Source of the DNA: a virus
Lineage: Duplodnaviria; Caudoviricetes
IMG/VR virus record: IMGVR_UViG_3300036802_000112
Span: 96,001 to 160,000 of that record
Direction: 5' to 3' (one strand)
DNA: 64,000 nucleotides
Below the pieces are notes generated by a model. It was not told the DNA's origin and searched no databases. It worked only from the letters and a program-made list of their open reading frames with translations. The position numbers were made by a program, and so were the translations under genes. Below, piece by piece: positions 7,972 to 61,332 of the stretch (positions within the stretch are counted from its first letter, which is position 1; every line of letters starts with the position of its first letter).

Positions 7972-8997
7972 ATGGAAAAGGAAATTATTAACTTTTATGA
8001 AGTATTAGGTATTAAAACAACTGCGGATGCAAAAGAAATTAAGAAAGCATACAGAGATTTAGCGAAGAAATATCACCCTGATGTTAGTGATGTTGTAGAT
8101 GCGAAAGAGAAGTTCCAAGAAATTCAGGAAGCTTATGAGATTCTAGGGAACGAAGAGAGCAGAGAAGATTATGATGCTGCACTAAAGGATCATGAAGCAA
8201 GAGTGGAAAGAAGCAAAGTGAAGTTTACTGATGTATTCCGTTCTTTCTTCACGAGTTCTGCTAATGCATTAAAAGCGTTAGATGGAAAGGATGTTGAAGT
8301 TACCGTACTCTTTACAGTAGAAGATGCATTCAAAGGAACTGAAAAAACCTTTGAATACAATCGTTTTAAATCTTGCCCTGATTGCAAAGGACACGGCGTT
8401 ATCAGTGAAAACTTAACTCCTTGTTCTGATTGTGATGGAAAAGGCGTAACACCAAAAATGATTTTAACACCGTTTGGTAAACTACAGTCTTCCGAAGAAT
8501 GTAAAAAATGCAAAGGTACCACGTATAAGAAACATTCTCCTTGTGAAACATGCATGAGAACAGGGAAAGTAACAAACAAGTCTAAAATCAAAATAGAAGT
8601 TCCAGCGGATGTTTATCATGGCAAGCAAATGATTATACATGGTCGAGGTGAATTAGGTATTCGTGGTGGATCAACAGGAGACTTAATCATCACATTCGAA
8701 CATTCACCAAGCGATGTGTATAAATTGGAATATGATTACGACATTGTTAAGAAGTTGACGATTCCTTTAAAGACAGCACTTTTAGGAGGTGAGGCTCAAG
8801 TAATAAAACCGAATGGCGAAAAAGAAACCGTTAAAATACCAAAGGCTACGTCAAATGGTTCTCGACTTGGACTAGGTAACATGGGATTATTGAATGAGAA
8901 AACAAAGCAGAGAGGGCTATGCTACGCTGAATTGGTAGTAGCGATGCCTACAGATTTATCACAATCGGAACTGAATAAGATTGGTGATATCTTGTGA
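7972..8997 (+). CDS. dnaJ: DnaJ-family co-chaperone
   Basis: J domain with HPD, four CxxCxGxG-type repeats, C-terminal domain. Confidence 0.92.
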   Translation: MEKEIINFYEVLGIKTTADAKEIKKAYRDLAKKYHPDVSDVVDAKEKFQEIQEAYEILGNEESREDYDAALKDHEARVERSKVKFTDVFRSFFTSSANALKALDGKDVEVTVLFTVEDAFKGTEKTFEYNRFKSCPDCKGHGVISENLTPCSDCDGKGVTPKMILTPFGKLQSSEECKKCKGTTYKKHSPCETCMRTGKVTNKSKIKIEVPADVYHGKQMIIHGRGELGIRGGSTGDLIITFEHSPSDVYKLEYDYDIVKKLTIPLKTALLGGEAQVIKPNGEKETVKIPKATSNGSRLGLGNMGLLNEKTKQRGLCYAELVVAMPTDLSQSELNKIGDIL

Positions 8998-12220: not shown

Positions 12221-12260
12221 AAACAACAGATACAGTAATGTATCTGTTGTTTACTTTTTT
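12221..12260 (+). terminator. Rho-independent terminator
   Basis: AAACAACAGATACA-gtaa-TGTATCTGTTGTTT plus T run. Confidence 0.8.
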
Positions 12261-12294: not shown

Positions 12295-13338
12295 ATGAAA
12301 ATGGAACGAGTTAAAGGACTATTATTTGAGGTAGCAAAGAGTAATATGGATACGAGATTACAAGGGTTCTTCATTGATCCAGATAAAGGTATGGCACTTG
12401 CAGGGCACAGAAGAATTTACGGTCATGGCGATTGCTTAGTACGTGCAATGGGTGATTTTGATATGCCACAAAAATACGGATACCGTCCAGGATACTATGA
12501 TTATAGTAAAGATGATTTCTATGCAGATCAACCAGGTCTTTACGGAAAGCAAGTTGAGGGAGACAGATACATGGTTGGACCAGAAGAATCTGATATGATT
12601 TTCGGTCAAGCATTCGAAAAAATCGAAGACGGTTTCTCTGTATTAGTAAACCCAAAAATCATTTGTGAGTTCATTGAGAATTTCACAAAATTCAATGGCT
12701 TTGCAAATAAGAAATTAAATATGCAAGTATTTAACGGAATGTCAAATGTAGGTCATTTCACTGGAAGAATCGAAACGAATCCAAATACAGGTGAAATCGG
12801 AATTGTTATCGCCAATAAATACTTCTGCCATATTGATAAAAAGTACTCTTTACTTAACCCTGACCACATCAGAGAAGGTGCTTATGTAGTTGCGGAAATG
12901 GTAGGAGTTGTGGAAGAGAAACGTGTAGTTAGATTACTTCGTATGTTCAAAAGTGGCATCCGACTTGCGATTCAGGATTTCAGAAATGGATTGATGTTAG
13001 ATAATGCTGCACCGTATTCTTTACATGAAGAAACAGATAACGGAATCACAAAACAAGGAATTATGGATGTTCCGTTCTTAGAAAGACAGTTTGACCCTAA
13101 TGATCCACAAAGCCAAAATGCATACTTGAAAGCTCCTGTATTACATTTTGACTTAGATACATTCTACCGTGCATTAAAACCAATGGAAATGCATAGAGTA
13201 GCTGAAATCCATTTTAAAGATTGTATCTCTCCAGTTATGATGCGAACAATTAACGAAGGAGAACCAGGAGAAATTGCGGTAGAGTCGTTGATAGGAACGT
13301 CGTCTCCGTATAGAAGAGGAAAGGTGTGGACTCCGTGA
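12295..13338 (+). CDS. Putative diverged DNA polymerase III beta (sliding clamp)-like protein
   Basis: DTRLQGFFIDPDKGMALAGHRRI resembles DnaN (TRxxLxG...ATDGHRL); C-terminal FDLDTFYRALKPM...AEIHFKDCISPVMM resembles DnaN domain III. Confidence 0.45.
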   Translation: MKMERVKGLLFEVAKSNMDTRLQGFFIDPDKGMALAGHRRIYGHGDCLVRAMGDFDMPQKYGYRPGYYDYSKDDFYADQPGLYGKQVEGDRYMVGPEESDMIFGQAFEKIEDGFSVLVNPKIICEFIENFTKFNGFANKKLNMQVFNGMSNVGHFTGRIETNPNTGEIGIVIANKYFCHIDKKYSLLNPDHIREGAYVVAEMVGVVEEKRVVRLLRMFKSGIRLAIQDFRNGLMLDNAAPYSLHEETDNGITKQGIMDVPFLERQFDPNDPQSQNAYLKAPVLHFDLDTFYRALKPMEMHRVAEIHFKDCISPVMMRTINEGEPGEIAVESLIGTSSPYRRGKVWTP

Positions 13339-13694
13339 TGAGGTATCAATTAATAACAGGAGAAGGAGATATAAACCGCAAGCTCGGCGTAGACTTACAT
13401 AAAGTCTATAGCCGGGCTTGCGCGGGTTTTAACCCGTTAACGTATCTACCTTCAGATTATGTACCGAATTTTGAATCTCTGTATGAGGAATATTGTGATA
13501 TGTATATCCAAAAAGTAACCGATGCAGATTCATTTTTCGAATCAATCAAAGAGATGGCTACCTCGGAAGGGGGTGATAATGTAAGTGGTAGTATTGTAGG
13601 GAAAGCAGAATTCCTGAACATTTTATTTATGACCAATCACTTGTTTTTCTTAGATGGCGAATTGATGAATTCGATAGTACTGGAGGTATGGTAG
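13338..13694 (+). CDS. EVW-family paralog 1
   Basis: MRYQL...NSIVLEVW*; TGATG overlap with the upstream gene. Confidence 0.8.
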   Translation: MRYQLITGEGDINRKLGVDLHKVYSRACAGFNPLTYLPSDYVPNFESLYEEYCDMYIQKVTDADSFFESIKEMATSEGGDNVSGSIVGKAEFLNILFMTNHLFFLDGELMNSIVLEVW

Positions 13695-13697
13695 GAG

Positions 13698-14066
13698 ATG
13701 GTAAGGAACGATGAGTTAGCGGAATATATGTATGGAATAGAAGAAGCAGAAGCAATAACAATGTTAATTGATATTTATAGAAATATAGCAATATCATCAG
13801 AAATAACAATTCCTGATATTGACATTCTATACAATATTTTTAGAGAGCGATGGGTGGATAAAACATATGACTTCGTGGTTGCAAATGCAGATGCATATGC
13901 ACTCGATTTAACTGAATTTACAAAGACAAATTACATTTACAAACTCGAAGAAGTTGGTTTTGTAATATTAAAAGTAGACGATGTGCACGACATATTGAAT
14001 CGGATGCAATTTTCGTTTCGTAGTAAAGAAGAAATATGGAATACAGCGGTGATAGAAGTATGGTAA
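13698..14066 (+). CDS. EVW-family paralog 2
   Basis: Ends NTAVIEVW*. Confidence 0.8.
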   Translation: MVRNDELAEYMYGIEEAEAITMLIDIYRNIAISSEITIPDIDILYNIFRERWVDKTYDFVVANADAYALDLTEFTKTNYIYKLEEVGFVILKVDDVHDILNRMQFSFRSKEEIWNTAVIEVW

Positions 14067-14461
14067 GTTATGGACTTTCAACAAGAATTGATGAAGAAAT
14101 AAGCTCGAAGATTGACTTCGAGCTTATTTCTTCTATTTACAAAGAATTAACAGCTATGTATTACGTACCTAGTTCCGAGGCTATTTTTAATCATTATAAT
14201 ATGGTATTGGAACATAGATTAACAGAACTACAGGCCACGTTATATCCAGATGATGTTTATGAAGGGAAGCCAGGACAAGCGTATTCTCCAACCGTCCTTC
14301 CTGATTACGTGACAGCAGATTTACAGCAATACATACATATGGAGCCTGTAACTTTAGAAGACGTAGAATCATGTTTAGAATGTTATCACTTGTTCTTCAT
14401 TAGGGAAGAAAGAGATTATCAAAATGAATATATTAACCCAATTATATTAGAGGTGTGGTAG
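14060..14461 (+). CDS. EVW-family paralog 3
   Basis: MVSYGL...NPIILEVW*. Confidence 0.8.
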   Translation: MVSYGLSTRIDEEISSKIDFELISSIYKELTAMYYVPSSEAIFNHYNMVLEHRLTELQATLYPDDVYEGKPGQAYSPTVLPDYVTADLQQYIHMEPVTLEDVESCLECYHLFFIREERDYQNEYINPIILEVW

Positions 14462-14473
14462 GGAGAGAATATT

Positions 14474-14875
14474 ATGTTGCCAAACGTGTTAGTTGAACAT
14501 TCGGAGTTGTTAATTAATGATATGCAAATGTTTATATTTCAAGAATATAAATTGATTTGGGATGAATGTATATCGAAACGAAGAACGGAAGTTCCTTCAA
14601 TATATACGATTGCAGAACGCATTTACGAGGTTCTACAAGACAAAATCACAAAGCTGCTACAGGCTAAGTATACATTTAATATCGATAACTTCAACGAAGA
14701 AGATTTCCAAAAAACCGTGGCAATATATTCATTTTGGTTTGACCAAAAGACAGAAGGTAATGATTACATATTTGAATCTTTACTTCATGAAATGACTAAA
14801 TTTTTCTGTTTGCATCAATTATTTCACGAAAGGGATGGGGAGTTAATAAATCAACCTATCTTGGAGGTGTGGTGA
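14474..14875 (+). CDS. EVW-family paralog 4
   Basis: Ends DGELINQPILEVW*. Confidence 0.8.
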   Translation: MLPNVLVEHSELLINDMQMFIFQEYKLIWDECISKRRTEVPSIYTIAERIYEVLQDKITKLLQAKYTFNIDNFNEEDFQKTVAIYSFWFDQKTEGNDYIFESLLHEMTKFFCLHQLFHERDGELINQPILEVW

Positions 14876-14877
14876 TA

Positions 14878-15243
14878 TTGTATGAACTGATAAACCCATT
14901 GGATGTTATCGGTAACTTAGCTTATGTAGCGCTTAATTCAACGTATTTATTTATCGTTTCGGAAAGATGTTATAACCCAAATCATATACCTACGATTGAA
15001 ATGATTCACAATCACTTTGTGGATCATTTCATTCAAGAGTTAGTGTTAGAAGTTATACAAAGAGAAAGTTTCGAAACATTAGGTGCTGATGATTTAGACG
15101 ACTTCTTACATCAAGTTAAGAACAAAAAATACCATCCGTTTATACCTGACATTATTGAACTACGAAATATGTTAGAAGCATGTTATATGACTTTTATAGA
15201 GGACGGTGAAGTTCATAATCCAATTATTGTGGAGGTGTGGTGA
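14878..15243 (+). CDS. EVW-family paralog 5
   Basis: TTG start, (M)YELI...DGEVHNPIIVEVW*. Confidence 0.8.
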   Translation: MYELINPLDVIGNLAYVALNSTYLFIVSERCYNPNHIPTIEMIHNHFVDHFIQELVLEVIQRESFETLGADDLDDFLHQVKNKKYHPFIPDIIELRNMLEACYMTFIEDGEVHNPIIVEVW

Positions 15244-15662
15244 TGTATCAACTTATACATCAGAATGACCGGAAAAAGAGCGCTTTAGAAGAATCAGCAG
15301 AAGCCATATTTTATTCAGTATACGGAGAGTTAGGAGAAGCAATACTGGATGAATTGTTTGGAGATTACCCGTATATCTTTATAGGGGATTTAGTAGATAA
15401 AGTGTATCAAGAATTGTATTTCGAGGAATACACAAACTTAATAGATGAATCAATCTTGAGAGGTGATCACGAAATATATGCACTATCAAAAGATGATTAT
15501 ACATTACAAGTATACGGAGGAAATATCGGTTTATATTATGAACCTGCTTTTGAAGTGTCTGATATAAAAACAATGATAAGTCAAATGTTGTGCGAACAGA
15601 ACATAGCATACTTAGATTATGACTTCACGATGCAAAATGAAATTATATTAGAGGTGTGGTAA
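15243..15662 (+). CDS. EVW-family paralog 6
   Basis: MYQLI...NEIILEVW*. Confidence 0.8.
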   Translation: MYQLIHQNDRKKSALEESAEAIFYSVYGELGEAILDELFGDYPYIFIGDLVDKVYQELYFEEYTNLIDESILRGDHEIYALSKDDYTLQVYGGNIGLYYEPAFEVSDIKTMISQMLCEQNIAYLDYDFTMQNEIILEVW

Positions 15663-16126
15663 TGGTCAATGTAAATGAATTAATGCTTATGAATCCAGAT
15701 GACATTGTAGGTATTATGGATGCTATGAATTTAATAACAAAGGAGACATTCGATAGGTTCGTCACGTTATTAACACATTGGTACAAAAGAGAATCACTGA
15801 TGGAAGATAACATTCCAAATTTATTTCCAATCTTCCAGATGACAGATCCAATCATAGACGACTTATGCGAAATATTTATAGAGAGTATAGGGTGGAGGGA
15901 GTTGGGAGAACAACAGATGACTCATGAATTCGAACGGAATCCGGAAGACAAACTAATTATCAAGAATCAATTTGTCGATGGTTACGATTCGGTATATTCA
16001 ACAAACATGGTCAGGGATACAGAACGAGTTTTTAATTCTATGAACCTTGTACATAGATGGGATTCTACATATGTAGGAGGTAAAGATAACTTAGTAACAG
16101 GAGGAGTTGTATTAGAAGTATGGTAG
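15662..16126 (+). CDS. EVW-family paralog 7
   Basis: Ends GGVVLEVW*. Confidence 0.8.
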   Translation: MVNVNELMLMNPDDIVGIMDAMNLITKETFDRFVTLLTHWYKRESLMEDNIPNLFPIFQMTDPIIDDLCEIFIESIGWRELGEQQMTHEFERNPEDKLIIKNQFVDGYDSVYSTNMVRDTERVFNSMNLVHRWDSTYVGGKDNLVTGGVVLEVW

Positions 16127-16557
16127 GTACATATGCATTATCAGTAGAAACGGAAGAAATAGAATACGATGTAATCAAACCACAATACGTATCATGGTTT
16201 GAAAGGGTAATTATGAATTGGTATCAAGAGTTCGGTAGGTTAACCCCCAAATACCTACCGACTGTTGTGGATATTTTAGATGATAGCCTTCATCCAATAG
16301 GTGGAACTGCATCAGAAGCATTCGCTCTTTTAGAACAATCTGTTCAAGTTGAGTTTTGTGGTATTGATACATTTCCAGAAGACTTAGGGAATTGGACAGA
16401 TGACCACTACTTATACTTTGAAGACCAAGTGGATTTAACTGATTACGAAGTAGATTTATTTAAAGATATAGAGAAACTGTTAGAAACGAAAGGATTAACA
16501 TACTCTAGATATAACCCCGAAACAGCGCAAGTATCAAGTGTAATCGAGGTGTGGTAA
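16120..16557 (+). CDS. EVW-family paralog 8
   Basis: MVGTYAL...SSVIEVW*. Confidence 0.8.
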   Translation: MVGTYALSVETEEIEYDVIKPQYVSWFERVIMNWYQEFGRLTPKYLPTVVDILDDSLHPIGGTASEAFALLEQSVQVEFCGIDTFPEDLGNWTDDHYLYFEDQVDLTDYEVDLFKDIEKLLETKGLTYSRYNPETAQVSSVIEVW

Positions 16558-17001
16558 ATGTATCAATTAGCGGTTAATAATTACAGTGAAGTGCCATTTA
16601 AAATAGTAGATAAGGACCCGGGAACCGTGCAAGAATTCTTCTTTTTAATTTCTGGATTGTATCATGACTATTGTATGTGCAGAGAAGACCTCCCTAGTCC
16701 AAAAGACATGCTAGAAGAAGATCGTAATTTTTATCCAAAATCAAACGAAACAGTAAACGGATTTTTAGATGGTATGATTCATGAAATGATGCATAGACGA
16801 AATACTTTCTTAGATGATTTTATAGAAGTATTACCAGAAGACGCGGACACTGATTCTTTAGCTGATTTTTTAGATGGATGTTGGGATGATATGAAGCCTT
16901 ACTATGAGGATGAAATACGTATCGCATTAGAAGTACTAGGATACGCATATAAAGGCGAATGGGGAGAAGTAAGAAATACTTATGTAATCGAGGTGTGGTA
17001 A
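16558..17001 (+). CDS. EVW-family paralog 9
   Basis: MYQLA...GEVRNTYVIEVW*. Confidence 0.8.
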   Translation: MYQLAVNNYSEVPFKIVDKDPGTVQEFFFLISGLYHDYCMCREDLPSPKDMLEEDRNFYPKSNETVNGFLDGMIHEMMHRRNTFLDDFIEVLPEDADTDSLADFLDGCWDDMKPYYEDEIRIALEVLGYAYKGEWGEVRNTYVIEVW

Positions 17002-17370
17002 ATGTACGAGATACAAAAGACAGAGGTAGAATTCATCTTTGTGCCGGATGATTTCTACCACACTTTTAAAGATGTTATAAAAACGTGGTATGAAAATTTC
17101 GAATACTGTTTCCCGACACGGATACCAGAGGCACAAATATTTAGTATGGACTACCAAATTGGTTTCGAATTTGAAAGTGGCTTAATATGGTTTGCAGGTG
17201 CAATATTAGAAATTGCGGAACCAGACAATGAATTTGCTTCCATGCATGATTTAAGTGTAATGGAACAGATGTGGTTCGAAGAGGATATGCGTACATTATT
17301 AGATGCAGAAAGTATCACTTATATGTACGACGGTGAACTTAAAAATAGTGTTATTTTGGAGGTATGGTAG
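17002..17370 (+). CDS. EVW-family paralog 10
   Basis: MYEI...DGELKNSVILEVW*. Confidence 0.8.
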   Translation: MYEIQKTEVEFIFVPDDFYHTFKDVIKTWYENFEYCFPTRIPEAQIFSMDYQIGFEFESGLIWFAGAILEIAEPDNEFASMHDLSVMEQMWFEEDMRTLLDAESITYMYDGELKNSVILEVW

Positions 17371-17372
17371 GT

Positions 17373-17906
17373 ATGTATTTAAGTACAGAAGTAGCAAATC
17401 ATGAATTTCAATTTTTCTGTTTAGAAACAAATTCAATAGAAGAAATCACGAAAGATCTTAGAGAAGTTTATAAGGCGATTGTGAAAGAGACTGATAATGT
17501 ACCAAACTTATTCGATATCAGATTGTATAGTTCAAACTTAATCAACTACGTCTTTTTTGAAAGAATCGCCTTAGGGAAGGAAAGTGCCTTAGATTATTAT
17601 ACAGACGGAGAAGGTATTATAGAACACATACAAGATATCATGAAAAGCTATTCGAAAGAAGAATTTCATCATGGAATCGAAAGGTGTATACAAGAATTCC
17701 CAACATTAGAATCTACCGAGGATATAATAGAACTTTTCATGGTTGACGCTTTATATATATTCAATCTGAATCAGTGGAGGTACCACGATATAGAATGGTA
17801 TCCTGCTTACAACATGTTGCTGCTATCGGATAAATTAGGAGACATTTTGAATTCGCAGGGTAAGGTAGAATTCGATGTTAACAATCCAATGATAGAGGTG
17901 TGGTGA
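17373..17906 (+). CDS. EVW-family paralog 11
   Basis: MYL...NNPMIEVW*. Confidence 0.8.
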   Translation: MYLSTEVANHEFQFFCLETNSIEEITKDLREVYKAIVKETDNVPNLFDIRLYSSNLINYVFFERIALGKESALDYYTDGEGIIEHIQDIMKSYSKEEFHHGIERCIQEFPTLESTEDIIELFMVDALYIFNLNQWRYHDIEWYPAYNMLLLSDKLGDILNSQGKVEFDVNNPMIEVW

Positions 17907-17907
17907 A

Positions 17908-18393
17908 ATGAATCAATTAACATTACTTTCGGATGTTAATCAAGTTATAGACTTCGACTTTTTCGAACACAAAGGAAATAAGTTGGAAGAATTCAAAGAA
18001 GAATTGTTGGGTTCCTATGAACAAGCTTGTGAGTATTGGGTTTATGATGAAGGAGAAGAACAACTTCCCACGCTTTCTGTTATAGGCGATATAGCTTGCA
18101 GGATGTATGTAGAAGAAATTGTGTTTAAATGTTATGCAGATGGATCTATAGCAGGGAATATAGATGTCAGAGAAAATATAGATGAACATCAATGCGACCA
18201 ATTAGATGAAATACAAGACTCTATCCATGATGAGTTCCATCATAATAGAAGTTTCGGAATGGGTATCGGTAACATAAGAGATTACTTCAATGACATCGAA
18301 AAGTTATTGAACTTATGTAACTTAACATATAGAAAGGATGATGATAGAGCGAATATATGCAACGTTAATTCACATGTTGTGGAGGTTTGGTGA
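17908..18393 (+). CDS. EVW-family paralog 12
   Basis: MNQL...NSHVVEVW*. Confidence 0.8.
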   Translation: MNQLTLLSDVNQVIDFDFFEHKGNKLEEFKEELLGSYEQACEYWVYDEGEEQLPTLSVIGDIACRMYVEEIVFKCYADGSIAGNIDVRENIDEHQCDQLDEIQDSIHDEFHHNRSFGMGIGNIRDYFNDIEKLLNLCNLTYRKDDDRANICNVNSHVVEVW

Positions 18394-18860
18394 TGTATCA
18401 ATTACAGACTGATGTAAAGGAGTTTCCGTTACATTTTATACCGAAAGAAAAAACAGAAGCATTCATTAAGGCAATACTGTCTGCATACAAACGTATATAT
18501 ACAGTTATGAGTAAAGTGAGTGGAGTGAATTCATTCCATTACATAGAACCCTGGGGAGACATTGGCGTCTTTCTAGGGGATTTTTATGTAATGGGATGTT
18601 GCTATTACGAGACAGGAGAAGAGTATGCATACGAAAAAGCAGTAGCAAAAATAGATGCTATGGGAGATGATGGCGCATTCGAGTTAAGTGCAATGTATAA
18701 CGACGAGTGTTTTGAAGATTGGAGAAGTGAGTTCATTGATGATATCACAGCGGTTCTAGATATGCACAACTATTCATATTTCGATCCAGCTTCCGACCCG
18801 TACGCTGTCAATCTTGATTGTGTAGAAGTGAACAATACTCATATTATATCAGTATGGTAA
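18393..18860 (+). CDS. EVW-family paralog 13 (SVW variant)
   Basis: MYQL...NTHIISVW*. Confidence 0.8.
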   Translation: MYQLQTDVKEFPLHFIPKEKTEAFIKAILSAYKRIYTVMSKVSGVNSFHYIEPWGDIGVFLGDFYVMGCCYYETGEEYAYEKAVAKIDAMGDDGAFELSAMYNDECFEDWRSEFIDDITAVLDMHNYSYFDPASDPYAVNLDCVEVNNTHIISVW

Positions 18861-18874
18861 AGGAGAAGATAAAG

Positions 18875-19348
18875 ATGCAACAATTTATGTTACCACAAAA
18901 CTATGTTAGAGGTTATGATAACGCCCCTTATCGTTTGATATTCAATGTTCCAGAAGATGAGTTTAGAAAAGTTATGCGAGATATTTATATAGCTACTCAC
19001 ACAACGAACAGACCACCATACTTCGAAAGAATTTTATCGGAGCTTATTGAGATAGGTATGTTCTCTCGTGTGTTCTTAGAATACGCCAAAGAGAATCCTG
19101 AAAAATTCGATATGTCTATAAAACGCATAGATGAATTATATTATTGGGTGGTGGAGAAAGGTGTGAATGATGAATCAATTACACAAGAATTATTAAGTTT
19201 TGCAGGGTATTACTTCTGCGAAGAGTTCGAAAACGATATCCGTATCTTCTTGAACGATTTTAATTACAGTTTTTTAGAAAGAGATTATCACCATCAACAT
19301 GCGGATGAAGCTGCAATTAGAAACTCATGTATTATCCCTGTTTGGTGA
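18875..19348 (+). CDS. EVW-family paralog 14 (PVW variant)
   Basis: Own AAGGAG SD; ends NSCIIPVW*. Confidence 0.8.
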   Translation: MQQFMLPQNYVRGYDNAPYRLIFNVPEDEFRKVMRDIYIATHTTNRPPYFERILSELIEIGMFSRVFLEYAKENPEKFDMSIKRIDELYYWVVEKGVNDESITQELLSFAGYYFCEEFENDIRIFLNDFNYSFLERDYHHQHADEAAIRNSCIIPVW

Positions 19349-19397
19349 TATGTGAGTTTTTCTTTTTTAGTAGTGCACAGAGAAGGGGTCTTGCAAA

Positions 19398-20189
19398 ATG
19401 ACATTAGCAATTAAAGACAGTAAATGGATTAAGCGTTTTGACGTCGCTAAACTATTAGAGGATTCTTTAGACATGTCGTATTGGAAAGGGGATGATTGTA
19501 CAAAAGGAGTTTTCTTTACAGATGAATACGGTTACGCATTAAATAAAGTAGTAGCTATACGAGTTCATCATGACGAAGATGCTCCAGAAGTCTTCTACTC
19601 ATTTAATGAGAAGGATGACGAAGAATGTGGACCAGTCGTAACAGAGTATCCATATGAAGAGTTATCGTTATTACCTCGTAAACATCATTTACTATTTGAG
19701 GATACAAAAGTAGAGAAGAAAAATCTAGACAAAGTATTCGAAAGAAAAGAGGTGTTAAAATCAATTCAAATTGAACCGAAAACAATTGTGGAGAAGATCG
19801 AAGAGGAAATTCCAAATAAACGTCAACGTGATCGAACACAGTTGAAAATAAAGGTTCGGGATAACGAAGTGTTGTTTGAAGCACATAAGAAAAAGAAAGT
19901 TACTTTTTCGGAAATCATTAAGTATGATACAATTACAACGCGAGACATTATTGAACTACAACAACCTACATATGATTTAAGTCATTGGGAGACAGATAAA
20001 AAGACCAATGAAATAAACGGGGCAATCAATGCACATACGTTATGCTATTTACTTCATGTGTTTCAGGATTTTAATTCTGTATTTTTGCACTTTGAAGAAA
20101 ATAGAGTTTTTATCGTAGGTAATCCAAATGATGTTAATATAAATGGAACGCCTACAATAGAAGTCGTTGTTAGTTTAATGAAGCTTTAA
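19398..20189 (+). CDS. Second putative beta-clamp-like protein
   Basis: KGVFFTDEYGYALNKVVAIRV; INAHTLCYLLHVF..SVFLHF; C-terminal VVSLMKL resembling DnaN VVMPMRL. Confidence 0.45.
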   Translation: MTLAIKDSKWIKRFDVAKLLEDSLDMSYWKGDDCTKGVFFTDEYGYALNKVVAIRVHHDEDAPEVFYSFNEKDDEECGPVVTEYPYEELSLLPRKHHLLFEDTKVEKKNLDKVFERKEVLKSIQIEPKTIVEKIEEEIPNKRQRDRTQLKIKVRDNEVLFEAHKKKKVTFSEIIKYDTITTRDIIELQQPTYDLSHWETDKKTNEINGAINAHTLCYLLHVFQDFNSVFLHFEENRVFIVGNPNDVNINGTPTIEVVVSLMKL

Positions 20190-20212
20190 TGTGTTTTAGA
20201 GGAGGAAATGGT

Positions 20213-23200
20213 GTGAGTTGGTACAGTAAGGTTAATAAATATATAGATGATAACTTAATGGATTTCATCAAAGAGTTCTTCGGAGCGAATGCAAATACAG
20301 AGAAAATCGCCAGAGCTATTCGTGTTAGTCCTGCGCCATGTTGTGGTCATAACGATTGTTTCTCATTCGCAACTGAGAAAAATGCATTCAACTGTTTCTC
20401 TTGTAGAAAAAGCGGCAACAGAATTAAATCGTTGCAATACTTATTCGGTAATGAAAAAGACGCGAATAAGGCACTTTCTAAATGGGCAGGCGTTGAGTAC
20501 CTAGAAGATCGTGTATATGACGAACAAACGAGAAAGAAAATGGAGAAGGAAGAAAGACTGCAAGAGTTATATAGAATTGCTATTCTCCATTACACGTTCC
20601 AAATGCAAGACGAAACGGAATCTACGGCTTTAGCTATGCAAACAGGGAAAGAGCATGGTTGTCGTAAACACCAACTTGATTTCCTAAAGAAATATAAAGT
20701 TGGGTATTCAAGTGGTTGGGACTTCCTTCGCAATGCATTAGAAAAATCACCGAAGGGCTTCACAAAAGAAGAAATAGAAGAAGCGAAAAGTTTCATCTCT
20801 ATTCCAGAAGGATACTTTGTTTACCCTTATTATGATAAAGCAGGAAACTTAATTCGTATCAATACTAAATTGTTCGAAAGAAAATGTTTAGGTTCTTACG
20901 ATAGAGATACAGGAAGGTATGGTTACGATTGTGGCTATAGAACAAAAGACCTTTCCAAGAAATCACGAGAAACACATGAGCATCTAAAGAAACATAAGAT
21001 GGCCGGAGATGGTTTTTCACGCGGTGAGAAAACAAATGCATTTTACTTTGATCCAGAATCTATACAAAGAAAGCGATTCGCTATTCTTGTGGAAGGTGAA
21101 AATGATGTAATCTCGGCTGACGAAGAAATGGCAAATCTCCCTGAAAGTTATCGAAGAGATTTCGCTATCATCGGTTTAGGCGGTCAAATGGATGAAGAAA
21201 GTTTTGAGAGTCTATTCCTTCGTCAATTCGAAAAGATTTATGAGTGTTTCGACCACGACGATGCAGGAGATAAATACAGAAATTTGTTAGATGAAAAACT
21301 ACCTGACGTTCCTGTATACTCTATCCTATTCGATGACGATATCAATGATATCGATGCATGGCTTAAATCTCATTTGTATAATCCAGGTGATTTCAAAGAT
21401 GCTATTGATAATGCAGCGTACAGAGATACAAAGCATTATATCATCGAACGAGAAACATCAAAGCACCATTGGAGATTAAAGAACAGACAATTCGAAATTA
21501 CTTTCGATGTTTCCAAAGCGAATCATCAGAAAGGTACCATTGATGGAACAATCAGTGTTTACAAAGGCGGTCAACCTACGTTCAAGAAAACTGGAGATTT
21601 AATGAACACGAAGATTGACCCAGCTTTAAACACAACAAAATTGTTATTCGCAGAAGAAGTAGATAAGTATTACAACGATGTTGAGATGGTAGCGGATAAA
21701 CCGAAGCGTTCGTATTGGGAACTGATTAATATATTTAAATACACAAGTAAACAAAACCAAGTCATTAGACAGTTAGCTTGGTACTTACATCAGAAAGATA
21801 TAAAAGAATTCCAAGCTGCAGCATCAAAACTAGGTGCGTTAGGTCAAGAAGTGAAGGCACAAATTCTACAAGAAGTAAATTCTATAGAAAACCAACAGTT
21901 CGACCCAAACATTACACCGCCAATTATTACGTTATCTCAGTTCTTTAACATTCCAAACAATGACGCTTTCTTCTACTTCTCGAAAATTATTAATGAAGAA
22001 GATGTTACGAAAGCTGTTCCTTGTTTAATAACAAACAAGAAAGAAGAAATCCGTTTGGACCTGATGAAGAAGAGTGATCCGCAAAGTATCTTGCTGATTA
22101 AAAATAAATATCAACTTCCAACTGAAGTTCCGATAACAATCATGAACCAAAATGAAGTTTCTTTACAACGTTATTGGGTAGAACGTTGGAAGAATGAACA
22201 ATTAGATCCTGCGGAGTATGACCCGTCTAAATTAATTAAAGAAATTGAAGATTTCATTAGAGGTTCGTATTACCTGCATGATGATACGTTAAAAGTATTA
22301 TCGTTATGGATCTATTCAACATATTTCTATATGTTATTCCAAAGCGGATTCCCTTACTTATTAATCACCGGGGAAAAAGGAACGGGTAAATCAACTGCCG
22401 ATTTCCTAATCTACTTGTTATCTCTTAATCCTAAGTTTGCACTGCACATGTCGGAATCATCATTATTCCGTGCAATCAGTCAGCAGGGCGGAACGTTTAT
22501 CCTGGATGAGTTAGAGAACCTAACAGACAAGAAATCAGTTGATGGAAATGCATTTGCGACAATCCTAAAAGGTGGGTATTCTAACTTCGGTAGAATTTAC
22601 AGAACAAATATGGAAAACGGTATTGCGATGATTGAGGAACATTCAGCGTTTGGCCCGAAAGTAATTTCAAACATCAACGGATTAGATGATGTAATCGGTG
22701 ACCGTTGTATCTTCATTAAAACTGCGCGTGCACCGGAATCGAAATTGAAATTCTTGAAAGACCCGCAAATTTATAGAGAGCAAGAACGTTCCAAAGCACA
22801 CTCAATCACTTCGAGATGTGTAATATCAGCGTTAGAATACTTCCAAACTGTAAACGAAATTTACAACGATGCAAATAACAAAGTAATGACTGGTAATGCT
22901 CGTCTATCGCAAATCATCTTACCGTTAGTAGCGATGGCTAAATTTGTAGGTGGAGATTACGAAGAAGCTTTAATGCGATTCTACCGCGACGATATCGCAC
23001 CTGTAAAAGAAGAGTTATCTGTTTCTACACAAGAGGGTATGGTTAAGAACATCTTGAAAATTGTTGCACAAGAGCTTACAGGTATCAGAGAATCGAAATG
23101 GGCAACGAATGAAAAGATACACACGCATACTGTTCCAATCACATATCATCGTGAAACTGGCATATTTGAAATGGACTTACTGCACTTTATGGTACTTGGT

Positions 23201-23461
23201 GAAGAATCGAATGACGGTATAGAACTTGAATTGAAATCTTTACGCAATACAATTAAGATGATATTCAAAAGCGCAACCGACTTTAAAAACAGTGCGACAC
23301 CAAAGAATTTAACCATCCATGATGAGTCATTACAAAGAAGGTTAAATAATCAGAAGAACATCAGAACAACGTTATTTAGATTTAACGTCAACGATTATCT
23401 GAGTGAATCAGAAAAGCAAACGTTGCATAATAACTCTGTTCCAGAAACATCACTATTCTAA
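20213..23461 (+). CDS. DNA primase-helicase fusion (Zn finger, TOPRIM, P-loop NTPase)
   Basis: CC..H..C...FNCFSC Zn finger; VEGEND and FDHDDAG TOPRIM motifs; GEKGTGKS Walker A, ILDE Walker B. Confidence 0.88.
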   Translation: MSWYSKVNKYIDDNLMDFIKEFFGANANTEKIARAIRVSPAPCCGHNDCFSFATEKNAFNCFSCRKSGNRIKSLQYLFGNEKDANKALSKWAGVEYLEDRVYDEQTRKKMEKEERLQELYRIAILHYTFQMQDETESTALAMQTGKEHGCRKHQLDFLKKYKVGYSSGWDFLRNALEKSPKGFTKEEIEEAKSFISIPEGYFVYPYYDKAGNLIRINTKLFERKCLGSYDRDTGRYGYDCGYRTKDLSKKSRETHEHLKKHKMAGDGFSRGEKTNAFYFDPESIQRKRFAILVEGENDVISADEEMANLPESYRRDFAIIGLGGQMDEESFESLFLRQFEKIYECFDHDDAGDKYRNLLDEKLPDVPVYSILFDDDINDIDAWLKSHLYNPGDFKDAIDNAAYRDTKHYIIERETSKHHWRLKNRQFEITFDVSKANHQKGTIDGTISVYKGGQPTFKKTGDLMNTKIDPALNTTKLLFAEEVDKYYNDVEMVADKPKRSYWELINIFKYTSKQNQVIRQLAWYLHQKDIKEFQAAASKLGALGQEVKAQILQEVNSIENQQFDPNITPPIITLSQFFNIPNNDAFFYFSKIINEEDVTKAVPCLITNKKEEIRLDLMKKSDPQSILLIKNKYQLPTEVPITIMNQNEVSLQRYWVERWKNEQLDPAEYDPSKLIKEIEDFIRGSYYLHDDTLKVLSLWIYSTYFYMLFQSGFPYLLITGEKGTGKSTADFLIYLLSLNPKFALHMSESSLFRAISQQGGTFILDELENLTDKKSVDGNAFATILKGGYSNFGRIYRTNMENGIAMIEEHSAFGPKVISNINGLDDVIGDRCIFIKTARAPESKLKFLKDPQIYREQERSKAHSITSRCVISALEYFQTVNEIYNDANNKVMTGNARLSQIILPLVAMAKFVGGDYEEALMRFYRDDIAPVKEELSVSTQEGMVKNILKIVAQELTGIRESKWATNEKIHTHTVPITYHRETGIFEMDLLHFMVLGEESNDGIELELKSLRNTIKMIFKSATDFKNSATPKNLTIHDESLQRRLNNQKNIRTTLFRFNVNDYLSESEKQTLHNNSVPETSLF

Positions 23462-60849: not shown

Positions 60850-61332
60850 TTAGAAGGGTAAGTCGTCGTCCGAGATATCAATTGGTTGTCCAACATTACT
60901 AAACGGGTCATCGTTTTTGTTTTGATTACCAAAACCGTTACCTTGACCTTGATTGCTAAATCCGCTATTTCCTTGATTGCTGAAATCACCGTTACCACGC
61001 GCTTCAGTTGTATTTCGCGGCTCTAAAAACTGTACGCTCTCCGCAAGAACTTCTGTTACATATACACGCTTGCCATCTTGCCCATCATAGTTACGAGTTT
61101 GAAGACGTCCATCAACACCAGCTAAACTACCTTTCTTTAGATACTTAGCTACGTTCTCTGCTTGTTTACGCCAAATTACACAGTTGATAAAATCAGCTTC
61201 ACGATCACCTTGTTGATTTGCAAATGCACGATTTACAGCTAGTGTAAAAGTAGCCACTGCAATTCCATTTGGTGTGTAACGTAAATCAGGATCTTTCGTT
61301 AGTCGTCCTACTAAAATCACTCTATTCATCAT
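60850..61332 (-). CDS. ssb: Single-stranded DNA-binding protein, bacterial type
   Basis: [23 protein letters not shown]...DISDDDLPF, Bacillus SsbA-like. Confidence 0.95.

Follow-up and report, generated by a model that had tools for sequence, protein, structure and literature searches.

Do the last codons of a tandemly repeated phage gene serve the protein that they end, the gene that follows, or both? The question is raised by a stretch of 64,000 nucleotides (the window) of a phage from a soil metagenome, in which 14 tandem co-directional paralogs of an unannotated family (13338-19348) encode small acidic proteins. Every C-terminus reads VW-stop, 12/14 of them EVW, and among 181 ORFs the VW end belongs to these 14 and no others. 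The original prediction held that the EVW codons double as the Shine-Dalgarno (SD) sequence of the next gene and that the motif is also selected as protein.

Architecture of the array

As predicted, the conserved ends coincide with tight stop/start junctions: 11/13 junctions between paralogs overlap or abut, with gaps from -7 to +3 (in order, +3, -7, +12, +2, -1, -1, -7, 0, 0, +2, +1, -1 and +14). Gaps do not exceed 4 nt at 11/14 array junctions vs 49/170 in the rest of the genome (p = 3e-4). The features of the locus are as follows.

12221..12252, plus strand, terminator-like hairpin, 14-bp stem then T-run (consensus scan only)
12295..13338, plus strand, gene of predicted sliding-clamp fold, 347 aa; end AAG GTG TGG ACT CCG TGA
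13338..13694, plus strand, paralog 1, 118 aa; LEVW end; abutting, CTG GAG GTA TGG TAG GAG ATG
13698..14066, plus strand, paralog 2, 122 aa; IEVW end, GAA GTA TGG TAA
14060..14461, plus strand, paralog 3, 133 aa; LEVW end; 12-nt spacer with GGGAGAG SD for paralog 4
14474..14875, plus strand, paralog 4, 133 aa; LEVW end; TTG GAG GTG TGG TGA TA
14878..15243, plus strand, paralog 5, 121 aa; VEVW end; TGATG overlap into paralog 6
15243..15662, plus strand, paralog 6, 139 aa; LEVW end; TAATG overlap into paralog 7
15662..16126, plus strand, paralog 7, 154 aa; LEVW end, GAA GTA TGG TAG
16120..16557, plus strand, paralog 8, 145 aa; IEVW end; TAA abuts ATG of paralog 9
16558..17001, plus strand, paralog 9, 147 aa; IEVW end; TAA abuts ATG of paralog 10
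17002..17370, plus strand, paralog 10, 122 aa; LEVW end; GAG GTA TGG TAG GT ATG
17373..17906, plus strand, paralog 11, 177 aa; IEVW end; TGA A ATG
17908..18393, plus strand, paralog 12, 161 aa; VEVW end (GAG GTT); TGATG overlap into paralog 13
18393..18860, plus strand, paralog 13, 155 aa; ISVW end (TCA GTA); 14-nt spacer with its own AAGGAG
18875..19348, plus strand, paralog 14, 157 aa; IPVW end (CCT GTT); without a coupled partner
19319..19361, plus strand, terminator-like hairpin over the last codons of paralog 14, then T-run (consensus scan only)
19398..20189, plus strand, conserved 263-aa gene after the array and before the primase-helicase gene (20189-23461)

Seven of the 14 paralogs end in GAG GTG TGG and 3/14 in GAG GTA or GAG GTT TGG; the remaining ends are GAA GTA TGG (paralogs 2 and 7), TCA GTA TGG (13) and CCT GTT TGG (14). 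The terminal Glu is GAG in 10/12 cases vs 24.6% genome-wide (p = 3e-5), and the terminal Val is GTG in 7/14 vs 15.6% (p = 0.003). Before all the array starts, duplexes with a Bacillus-type anti-SD, which may differ from that of the host, range from -8.5 to -14 kcal/mol. Just 8% of random coding 22-mers attain -8.5 kcal/mol or stronger, and the array values are ordinary for the genes of this phage (genome median -11.1; 92% at -8.5 or stronger). Paralog 3 has a spacer-type junction in the window yet still carries GAG GTG, and paralog 5 starts at TTG, its orthologue starting at ATG with the same MYE N-terminus. The GAA GTA of paralogs 2 and 7 had been taken for a weakened SD; GTA TGG actually holds the next ATG there, the starts of paralogs 3 and 8 lying inside GT[ATG]G with an overlap of 7 nt.

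The two hairpins listed bracket 15 genes, the clamp-like gene plus the array, and a further one falls within paralog 13 (18549-18578), all of them from a consensus scan only. The 263-aa gene is always behind the array, with synteny in the related genomes L003, L009, L010, L012 and L013. A likeness to clamps is suggested by an Atlas feature lead only; hhalign against the clamp family gave a probability of 0.3%. Pol A/B/C were searched for and are absent.

A clamp-like protein encoded upstream

The product of the upstream 347-aa gene is, in its AF2 model (pLDDT 79.7), a true sliding-clamp fold. Foldseek returned 124 matches at E<=1e-3, and among the matches listed all were sliding clamps. Using VIA the model aligned with beta-clamp domains II-III over 196 residues (Z 14.7, rmsd 3.7), and its Pfam-bearing Atlas structure matches were PCNA, beta clamp, Hus1 or Rad9, the rest being unannotated viral clusters. 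Its sequence had no match in Pfam or PHROG at E<=0.01, nor among PDB sequences. The protein resembles the beta clamp (DnaN), PCNA and T4 gp45 in its two clamp domains, which superpose on domains II-III, but differs from them in having two domains with large insertions and no clamp Pfam sequence match.

This gene ends with the SD AAGGTG 8 nt before the ATG of paralog 1, in a TGATG overlap that shares the A of TGA. It had been proposed to give the first paralog the same signal as the array. The SD does persist in relatives as a purine-rich stretch, but KVW is not the family motif there, its W being replaced by Y, V or L.

Junctions in related arrays

The comparison drew on 97 junctions in 8 related arrays, which share ancestry (the arrays of the window and L003 are 1:1 orthologues) and in which the relatives' start codons are automatic gene calls. 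Codons -4 to -2 (9 nt) pair with the anti-SD at -5.5 kcal/mol or stronger at 59/62 abutting junctions (gap -4 to +6) vs 2/35 others (Fisher 4e-20; Mann-Whitney 6e-15), the class limits and the energy cut having been chosen post hoc. Synonymous choice follows the same division: NNG:NNA at -3 Glu/Lys/Gln is 43:2 in abutting junctions vs 1:8 in others (p = 4e-7), and 15:3 vs 2:7 at -4.

The residue itself changes with junction type. At abutting junctions the -3 codon is one of GAG, GGA, GGG, AAG and AGG, encoding E, G, K or R. If a separate SD serves the downstream gene, or that gene begins within GT[ATG]G, the residue at -3 drifts to S, N, D, Q, A or P, or to an E encoded by GAA. At this position the orthologues of paralog 2 carry D (GAT) or S (AGC), and those of paralog 7 G (GGC). 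Wherever the overlap is -7 (16/16 junctions), the codon at -2 is GTA or ATA, which makes ATG, or GTT, which makes TTG, and family members ending in NVW, TVW and AVW, predicted in advance to be non-abutting, proved to be -7 overlaps in 3/3 cases. Lineages have their own dialects at -4 and -3, all spelling an SD: L-E in the window, V-K, V-G and K-G in L009, Q-E in L012, and G-K, G-E and G-Q in L015. One uncoupled copy in L012 retains Q-E but writes it CAA GAA, not CAG GAG. L010 mostly has separate spacer SDs; its -3 residue is S, N or D and its -2 residue I or V, with W retained. The terminal Trp codon is TGG at 97/97 junctions, and at -2 there is V or, in rare cases, I or L, from six codons (GTG, GTA, GTT, ATT, ATA, TTG).

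The codon and residue pattern is thus dependent on junction class and [V/I]W is invariant. The E of EVW, originally held to be selected as protein, instead follows SD need. Glu remains the commonest single -3 residue even in non-abutting junctions (5/35, as GAA), and there may be a weak protein-level preference for it.

The protein family and its tail

HMMER gave 118 matches to the family, all full length. The C-terminus of 122 family proteins is VW in 120 and IW in 2, and E is the commonest residue at -3 (82/122). In an alignment of 128 sequences with a mean column identity of 12%, W is the sole invariant residue, with Y30, P42, N(-8) and V(-2) at least 90% conserved. The arrays of two close relatives differ by 50 synonymous vs 21 non-synonymous codons. 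Only the terminal Trp, the residue before it, Asn -8 and hydrophobic -5 behave as protein-selected, and the real protein motif is [V/I]W-COOH with Asn at -8. Protein-level selection on VW, as originally proposed, is borne out by the six codons at -2 and by retention in terminal and uncoupled copies, including paralog 13, whose downstream gene has AAGGAG, and paralog 14, which has no partner. Of the dual-use tail as first conceived, the two messages and the selection of VW stand, but for the most part the SD dictates the E.

The AF2 model of paralog 1 is moderate (mean pLDDT 71.7; 14-sequence alignment) and gave no Foldseek match at E<=0.001. The best VIA comparison of the paralog body with winged-helix proteins (ORC/Cdc6, Stn1 and cullin WH domains) reached Z 5.6, below the safe level for a shared fold.

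A probable two-code junction

These observations make it likely that the junctions are compact two-code cassettes, each combining a protein tail with the SD or the start of the next gene. In the protein code, all family members end in N-x-(P)-hydrophobic-x-x-[V/I]-W-COOH, with -4 and -3 free. In the mRNA code at overlapping or abutting starts, codons -4 and -3 plus a G-initial Val codon spell the SD (for example GAGGTG, GGAGTG, AAGGTG, CAGGAGGT and GGGAAGGTG), so that SD selection would set the codon and residue at -3 and sometimes at -4; the spacer of 5-8 nt to the next start is made up of the Trp codon and the stop. In a second junction type the next ATG lies inside GT[A TG]G, which requires GTA as the Val codon and makes the next protein begin with M-V. 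The clamp-like gene and the 14 paralogs would probably share one transcript and be translated by coupling or re-initiation; from the architecture we infer translational coupling, a single mRNA and balanced (stoichiometric) output.

Alternative explanations

A pure RBS effect, in which GAGGTGTGG is conserved purely as an RNA signal and EVW, its passive translation, has no role in the protein, is scarcely credible. It accounts for a -3 residue that follows SD need and for GAG and GTG being enriched over genome codon usage, but VW or IW is retained at 35/35 junctions where the codons are not an SD, last copies included, and in 122/122 family proteins. The -2 residue comes from six different codons, Asn -8 and hydrophobic -5 are conserved outside any SD, and the RNA motif in another frame occurs in no homologue (none has GAGGTG in a shifted frame without VW), which already contradicts this reading. 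The converse, that E-V-W is a functional tripeptide whose likeness to an SD is incidental, is highly improbable; the dependence of synonymous choice at -3 on junction type argues against it in spite of the prevalence of E in the wider family, and so does the replacement of E by G, K or R solely through SD-compatible codons and, at junctions without need of an SD, by S, N, D, Q, A or P. Orthologous positions change E to G or D among close relatives, which contradicts this reading for E.

It is also unlikely that the junctions are DNA-level cassettes providing microhomology for recombination, by which copies are gained, lost and shuffled (an 'accordion'). The same 24 nt at the 8/9 and 9/10 junctions (16539-16562 and 16983-17006), an exact repeat on both sides of paralog 9, would suit such a process, as would the copy numbers of distant lineages (11, 12, 14 and 17). 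Against it, four relatives have 14 copies with 1:1 or positional orthology, which argues that the copies are old and individually retained, and the best match of each window copy in L003 is at the same position. In L009, whose clamp-like protein is 37% identical, at least seven positions are clearly matched and a further two are shifted by one place. Array copies are about 21% identical to one another, which indicates no recent duplication or homogenisation, and the junction nucleotides vary exactly as SD and start-codon needs predict. The conservation of copy order down to 37% clamp identity likewise tells against the earlier suggestion that a dual-use element favours array expansion.

Why VW is conserved can be read in two ways. 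The tail may be an internal structural element, its Trp and the hydrophobics at -5 and -2 packing into the protein's own core without docking, a reading to which we give somewhat less than an even chance. The last 8 residues of the paralog 1 model have a mean pLDDT of 77 (93 for the preceding block), above that of a usual free tail, but the model as a whole is of moderate confidence. This reading concerns solely the conservation of VW and is compatible with the two-code explanation. Docking peptides, too, typically have a conserved aromatic residue at the extreme C-terminus and hydrophobic residues spaced i, i+3, i+4. PIP-box and other clamp-binding C-terminal peptides follow Qxxhxxaa, or QL[SD]LF in bacteria. 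The array tail is alike in its extreme C-terminal place and in its polar residue, hydrophobic at +3 and two hydrophobic or aromatic residues at +6 and +7 (N-x-x-[IVL]-x-x-V-W), and the array lies directly behind, and overlapping, a gene of sliding-clamp fold; it differs in having Asn for Gln and Val-Trp for the aromatic pair, and the resemblance is one of sequence only. It is conceivable, though rather doubtful, that N-x-P-hydrophobic-x-x-V-W-COOH is a PIP-like peptide docking 11-17 different, individually conserved acidic proteins on the phage's own two-domain clamp, whose gene lies directly ahead of theirs and would be translationally coupled to them, the array then supplying interchangeable clamp adaptors or competitors in fixed proportion to it.

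Comparison with known systems

Downstream SDs are said, for example in Eyre-Walker's work of 1996, to affect codon and residue choice at the 3' ends of bacterial genes. The array is alike in that, close to the stop, selection for an RNA signal skews the choice of synonymous codons and even of amino acids; it differs in being nearly deterministic and internally controlled by paralogs with and without SD need. In most prokaryote groups an overlapping start is as a rule preceded by an intragenic SD, and in E. coli pairs removal of the SD lowered re-initiation by 60-90% in three of five and abolished it in a fourth (PMC6728339). The array resembles such termination-reinitiation systems (PMC6728339, PMC10666635, PMC12548453) in its co-directional genes with TGATG, TAATG and TAAATG junctions, in a strong SD in the last upstream codons 5-8 nt before the start, and in the Bacillota-like heavy SD use throughout the phage genome. 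Unlike them, it repeats the solution at nine abutting junctions among 14 genes and conserves it over eight lineages, its coupling is predicted from architecture, and its SD is written in the same final codons as a conserved protein tail, which makes visible the residues that RNA dictates.

SDs embedded in coupled genes are already well known, and the array is a clean natural example in an uncharacterised family. It amounts to a natural controlled experiment, in which paralogs of the same family either have or lack the duty to carry the next SD: at a tolerant site the residue (E, G, K or R) can be fixed by an RNA signal, and the neighbouring Val-Trp stays protein-selected. 'Conserved' C-terminal residues in tight phage operons should therefore be checked for an SD before they are called a functional protein motif. 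The family is widespread, and the clamp-like gene, array and primase form a conserved module in uncultured soil phages, for which the delimited tail motif offers an exact starting point in the search for the tail's partner.

An array of acidic paralogs with a conserved Val-Trp end

The virus record, assembled from a soil metagenome, is a complete genome of 174,193 bp with direct terminal repeats, of which the window is a part, and the phage encodes a tail sheath, a helicase and a primase. No match was found among the 50,697 deposited phage genomes of INPHARED for the region (blastn) or for the clamp-like protein and the primase (tblastn), and the sequencing runs listed with this phage comprise one of soil-metagenome DNA and none of RNA. 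The array and the elements around it are the following:

12221-12252, terminator-like hairpin from a consensus scan
12295-13338 (+), clamp-like gene of 347 codons
13338-19348, 14 co-directional paralog genes of 118-177 codons each
19319-19361 (+), terminator-like hairpin from a consensus scan

With pI values of 4.05-4.76 every paralog product is strongly acidic; the products share about 21% mutual identity, and the family profile searched against the genome matches exactly these 14 ORFs. Against 1.84 billion representative proteins the profile returned 118 full-length relatives at E <= 0.001 which, with four from a first search, gave 122 family proteins, several of them the window's own; 120 end in Val-Trp (VW) and two in Ile-Trp. 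In an alignment of 128 sequences whose columns average 12% identity, the terminal Trp is the sole invariant residue; conservation is 90% or higher for Y30, P42 and, with negative numbers counted from the C-terminus, Asn at -8 and Val at -2. Pfam and PHROGs gave nothing significant for the window paralogs, no consistent Pfam match appeared across the 128 members, the family profile matched no PDB sequence, and no relevant description of a VW-tail family was found in the literature. The paralog protein family is itself new.

DNA was available for seven further arrays: the L003/L004/L005 group, whose members are close to one another and on average share 51% protein identity with the window, and loci L006, L009, L010, L012, L013 and L015, the last identical to L016. 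A third close relative (SRR11835592 contig) was compared by its gene table only. Where upstream sequence exists the gene order is constant, with the 347-aa homologue followed by 11-17 paralogs, a gene of 235-266 aa and a primase-helicase of about 1,090 aa. In L013 (NCBI assembly GCA_050273475.1) the array is split into 14 + 3 copies by a 229-aa gene (L013:11953-12642) with a weak Sigma70_r2 match.

Terminal codons and gene junctions

The Glu-Val-Trp (EVW) ends and tight junctions of the original prediction were borne out. Val-Trp-stop terminates all 14 paralogs and no others among 181 ORFs; Glu precedes it in 12, and seven carry GAG GTG TGG. The terminal Glu codon is GAG in 10 of 12 cases, compared with 24.6% genome-wide (p = 3e-5), and the terminal Val codon is GTG in 7 of 14, compared with 15.6% (p = 0.003). 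Gaps at 11 of the 13 internal junctions fall between -7 and +3, and the median gap in the array is 0.5 nt vs 20.5 nt elsewhere in the genome (p = 3e-4). Ahead of each downstream start lies a sequence that can form a duplex of -8.5 to -14 kcal/mol with a Bacillus-type anti-Shine-Dalgarno (anti-SD), which may not be that of the host. This strength is ordinary for the phage (median -11.1, with 92% of genes at -8.5 or stronger), whereas among random coding 22-mers just 8% pair as strongly.

Paralogs 1 and 2 lie in a common reading frame with only TAG GAG between them (window 13692-13700), so that one protein would result if the single intervening stop were read through. The two junctions of paralog 9 are identical over 24 nt, as an exact direct repeat of TGTAATCGAGGTGTGGTAAATGTA (window 16539-16562 and 16983-17006); it is accounted for by tail codons and start context, and local gene conversion may also have acted.

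We sorted 97 phylogenetically related junctions from eight lineages, using automatic start calls for the relatives and class limits set after inspecting the data, into type A (62), in which stop and next start overlap or adjoin; type B (16), in which the next ATG lies within the GT[ATG]G of the Val-Trp codons in a 7-nt overlap; and type C (19), comprising spacers of at least 9 nt carrying their own SD and the last copies of arrays. Codons -4 to -2 (9 nt) pair with the Bacillus-type anti-SD, possibly not the host's, at or below -5.5 kcal/mol, a cut likewise set after inspection, in 59 of 62 type A junctions vs 2 of 35 of types B and C. The difference in pairing is pronounced for these related junctions (Fisher 4e-20; Mann-Whitney 6e-15). 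The -3 codon of type A is GAG, GGA, AAG, GGG, AGG or CAG in 58 of 62 cases, and in types B and C the residue is S, N, D, Q, A, P, R (CGC), G (GGC/GGT) or E (GAA).

Two-fold Glu, Lys and Gln codons at -3 are NNG rather than NNA in a ratio of 43:2 in type A and 1:8 in the others (p = 4e-7), a bias that protein selection cannot explain; the same test at -4 gave 15:3 and 2:7. The -4/-3 residue pair is specific to the lineage, and at the RNA level it is always an SD: L-E in the window, V-K, V-G and K-G in L009, Q-E (CAG GAG) in L012, and G-K, G-E and G-Q in L015. One spacer-type copy of L012 retains Q-E, encoded CAA GAA. In L010 most junctions have a spacer SD or a -7 overlap; E and G are both absent from -3, V and I alternate at -2, and W is kept. 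The type B codon at -2 is in all 16 cases GTA or ATA, giving ATG, or GTT, giving TTG. Copies ending in NVW, TVW and AVW had been forecast as non-abutting, and all three proved to be -7 overlaps.

Protein selection and the Shine-Dalgarno requirement

The terminal Trp codon is TGG at all 97 ends and the beta-branched residue before it is kept through six different codons, on which grounds a pure ribosome-binding-site effect was rejected. A purely protein-level EVW motif was also rejected, the -3 codon and residue depending on the junction type. The pattern instead indicates that Trp, the beta-branched -2 residue, Asn at -8 and a hydrophobic residue at -5 are held by protein-level selection, and that positions -4 and -3 tolerate almost anything. 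Wherever the next gene lacks the space for a separate SD, the -4 and -3 codons have been recruited to form it, with the Val codon supplying the 3' part of the SD (G-GTG) and the Trp and stop codons acting as the spacer before the next start. The proposed dual code thus stands insofar as the terminal codons serve the SD and VW is protein-selected; the Glu at -3 tracks the need for an SD.

GAA GTA TGG at paralogs 2 and 7 had been read as a weakened SD, and both are type B; because their GTA-TGG pair contains the next ATG, the Glu codon is too near the start for an SD role, and orthologues carry D, S or G at these -3 positions. The end of the clamp-like gene is as described, its stop overlapping the ATG of paralog 1, but its KVW is not the family tail, since relatives have KVY, MVY, KVV or ILEV while an SD persists. 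At the other end of the array, the hairpin covers the last codons of paralog 14 (CCT GTT TGG TGA), which would be a third overlap of tail codons with an RNA signal.

The clamp-like protein and the paralog model

The 347-aa protein has no sequence-level family match, and its AF2 model (pLDDT 79.7) has a sliding-clamp fold. Foldseek gave 124 matches at E <= 1e-3, all clamps among the matches listed, and VIA gave Z 14.7 to beta-clamp domains II-III. The clamp alignment found nothing in GTDB genomes. Comparison of the 263-aa family downstream of the array with the clamp family gave an hhalign probability of 0.3%, and a PDB profile search also gave nothing, so that the description of two clamp-like genes bracketing the array holds for the upstream gene only. 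The two hairpins, found by consensus scan only, bracket the clamp-like gene and the array, and a single 15-gene transcript would be compatible with them.

The paralog model (pLDDT 71.7) consists of four helices, a beta-hairpin and the tail, with a weak resemblance to winged-helix domains (VIA Z 5.6) and nothing in Foldseek at E <= 0.001. With its N-x-x-h-x-x-V-W arrangement at the very C-terminal end, encoded just downstream of a clamp gene, the tail is reminiscent of PIP-type clamp-binding peptides, and by this analogy a clamp-docking role for it is a lead. The AF2 placement of the tail, moderately confident (pLDDT 77), would fit an internal anchor equally well, and a complex prediction of the clamp-like protein with paralog 10 (score 0.00) speaks neither for nor against binding.

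None of the Pfam families DNA_pol_A, DNA_pol_B and DNA_pol3_alpha is matched in the 174-kb genome, which has SbcCD-like genes and helicases as well as the clamp-fold gene and a primase-helicase; either the phage polymerase is very divergent or that of the host is used. The primase-helicase (window 20189-23461, +) ends in PETSLF, which loosely resembles the bacterial beta-clamp-binding pentapeptide QL[SD]LF; the L010 counterpart ends in EEPF, so the end is not conserved there. A 160-aa ORF (window 60850-61332, -) has an acidic C-terminal tip of the DDD(I/L)PF type typical of bacterial SSB C-termini, so the phage probably has an SSB of its own, whose tail would dock partners. A full-length DnaJ-like protein (window 7972-8997, +) matches phrog_14336, and its orthologues in related contigs match the DnaJ, DnaJ_C and DnaJ_CXXCXGXG families.

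Array history and coupling

Every window copy best matches the L003 copy at the same position, with identity of 0.51 at matching positions vs 0.26 elsewhere. Even with L009, whose clamp-like protein is only 37% identical to that of the window, positions 1, 2, 3, 5, 6, 7 and 14 pair clearly after removal of the tails (E 8e-18 to 4e-7); positions 11 and 13 match L009 one place earlier, and the remaining positions gave no significant match under the same treatment. Four relatives have 14 copies and distant lineages 11, 12 and 17. Across the array, two close relatives differ by 50 synonymous vs 21 non-synonymous codon changes. Given this positional orthology and the excess of synonymous changes, the copies are old, individually retained and under purifying selection. 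Recent accordion-like expansion was rejected on the same orthology, and nothing suggests the current expansion that the dual-use codons had been thought to favour.

In most groups of prokaryotes, overlapping gene pairs as a rule carry an SD motif near the 3' terminus of the first gene, and strong SDs in Bacillota serve both de novo initiation and re-initiation; of five E. coli pairs from which such SDs were removed, three lost 60-90% of re-initiation and a fourth lost all of it (PMC6728339). Genes must overlap or lie very close together to be tightly coupled, and they often encode subunits of complexes (PMC10666635; review PMC12548453). In their sequence the array junctions resemble such coupled pairs, with an SD in the last codons of the preceding gene. 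Since this placement is already the rule for overlapping genes, the array would represent a new, unusually clean instance of a known mechanism, in a new protein family.
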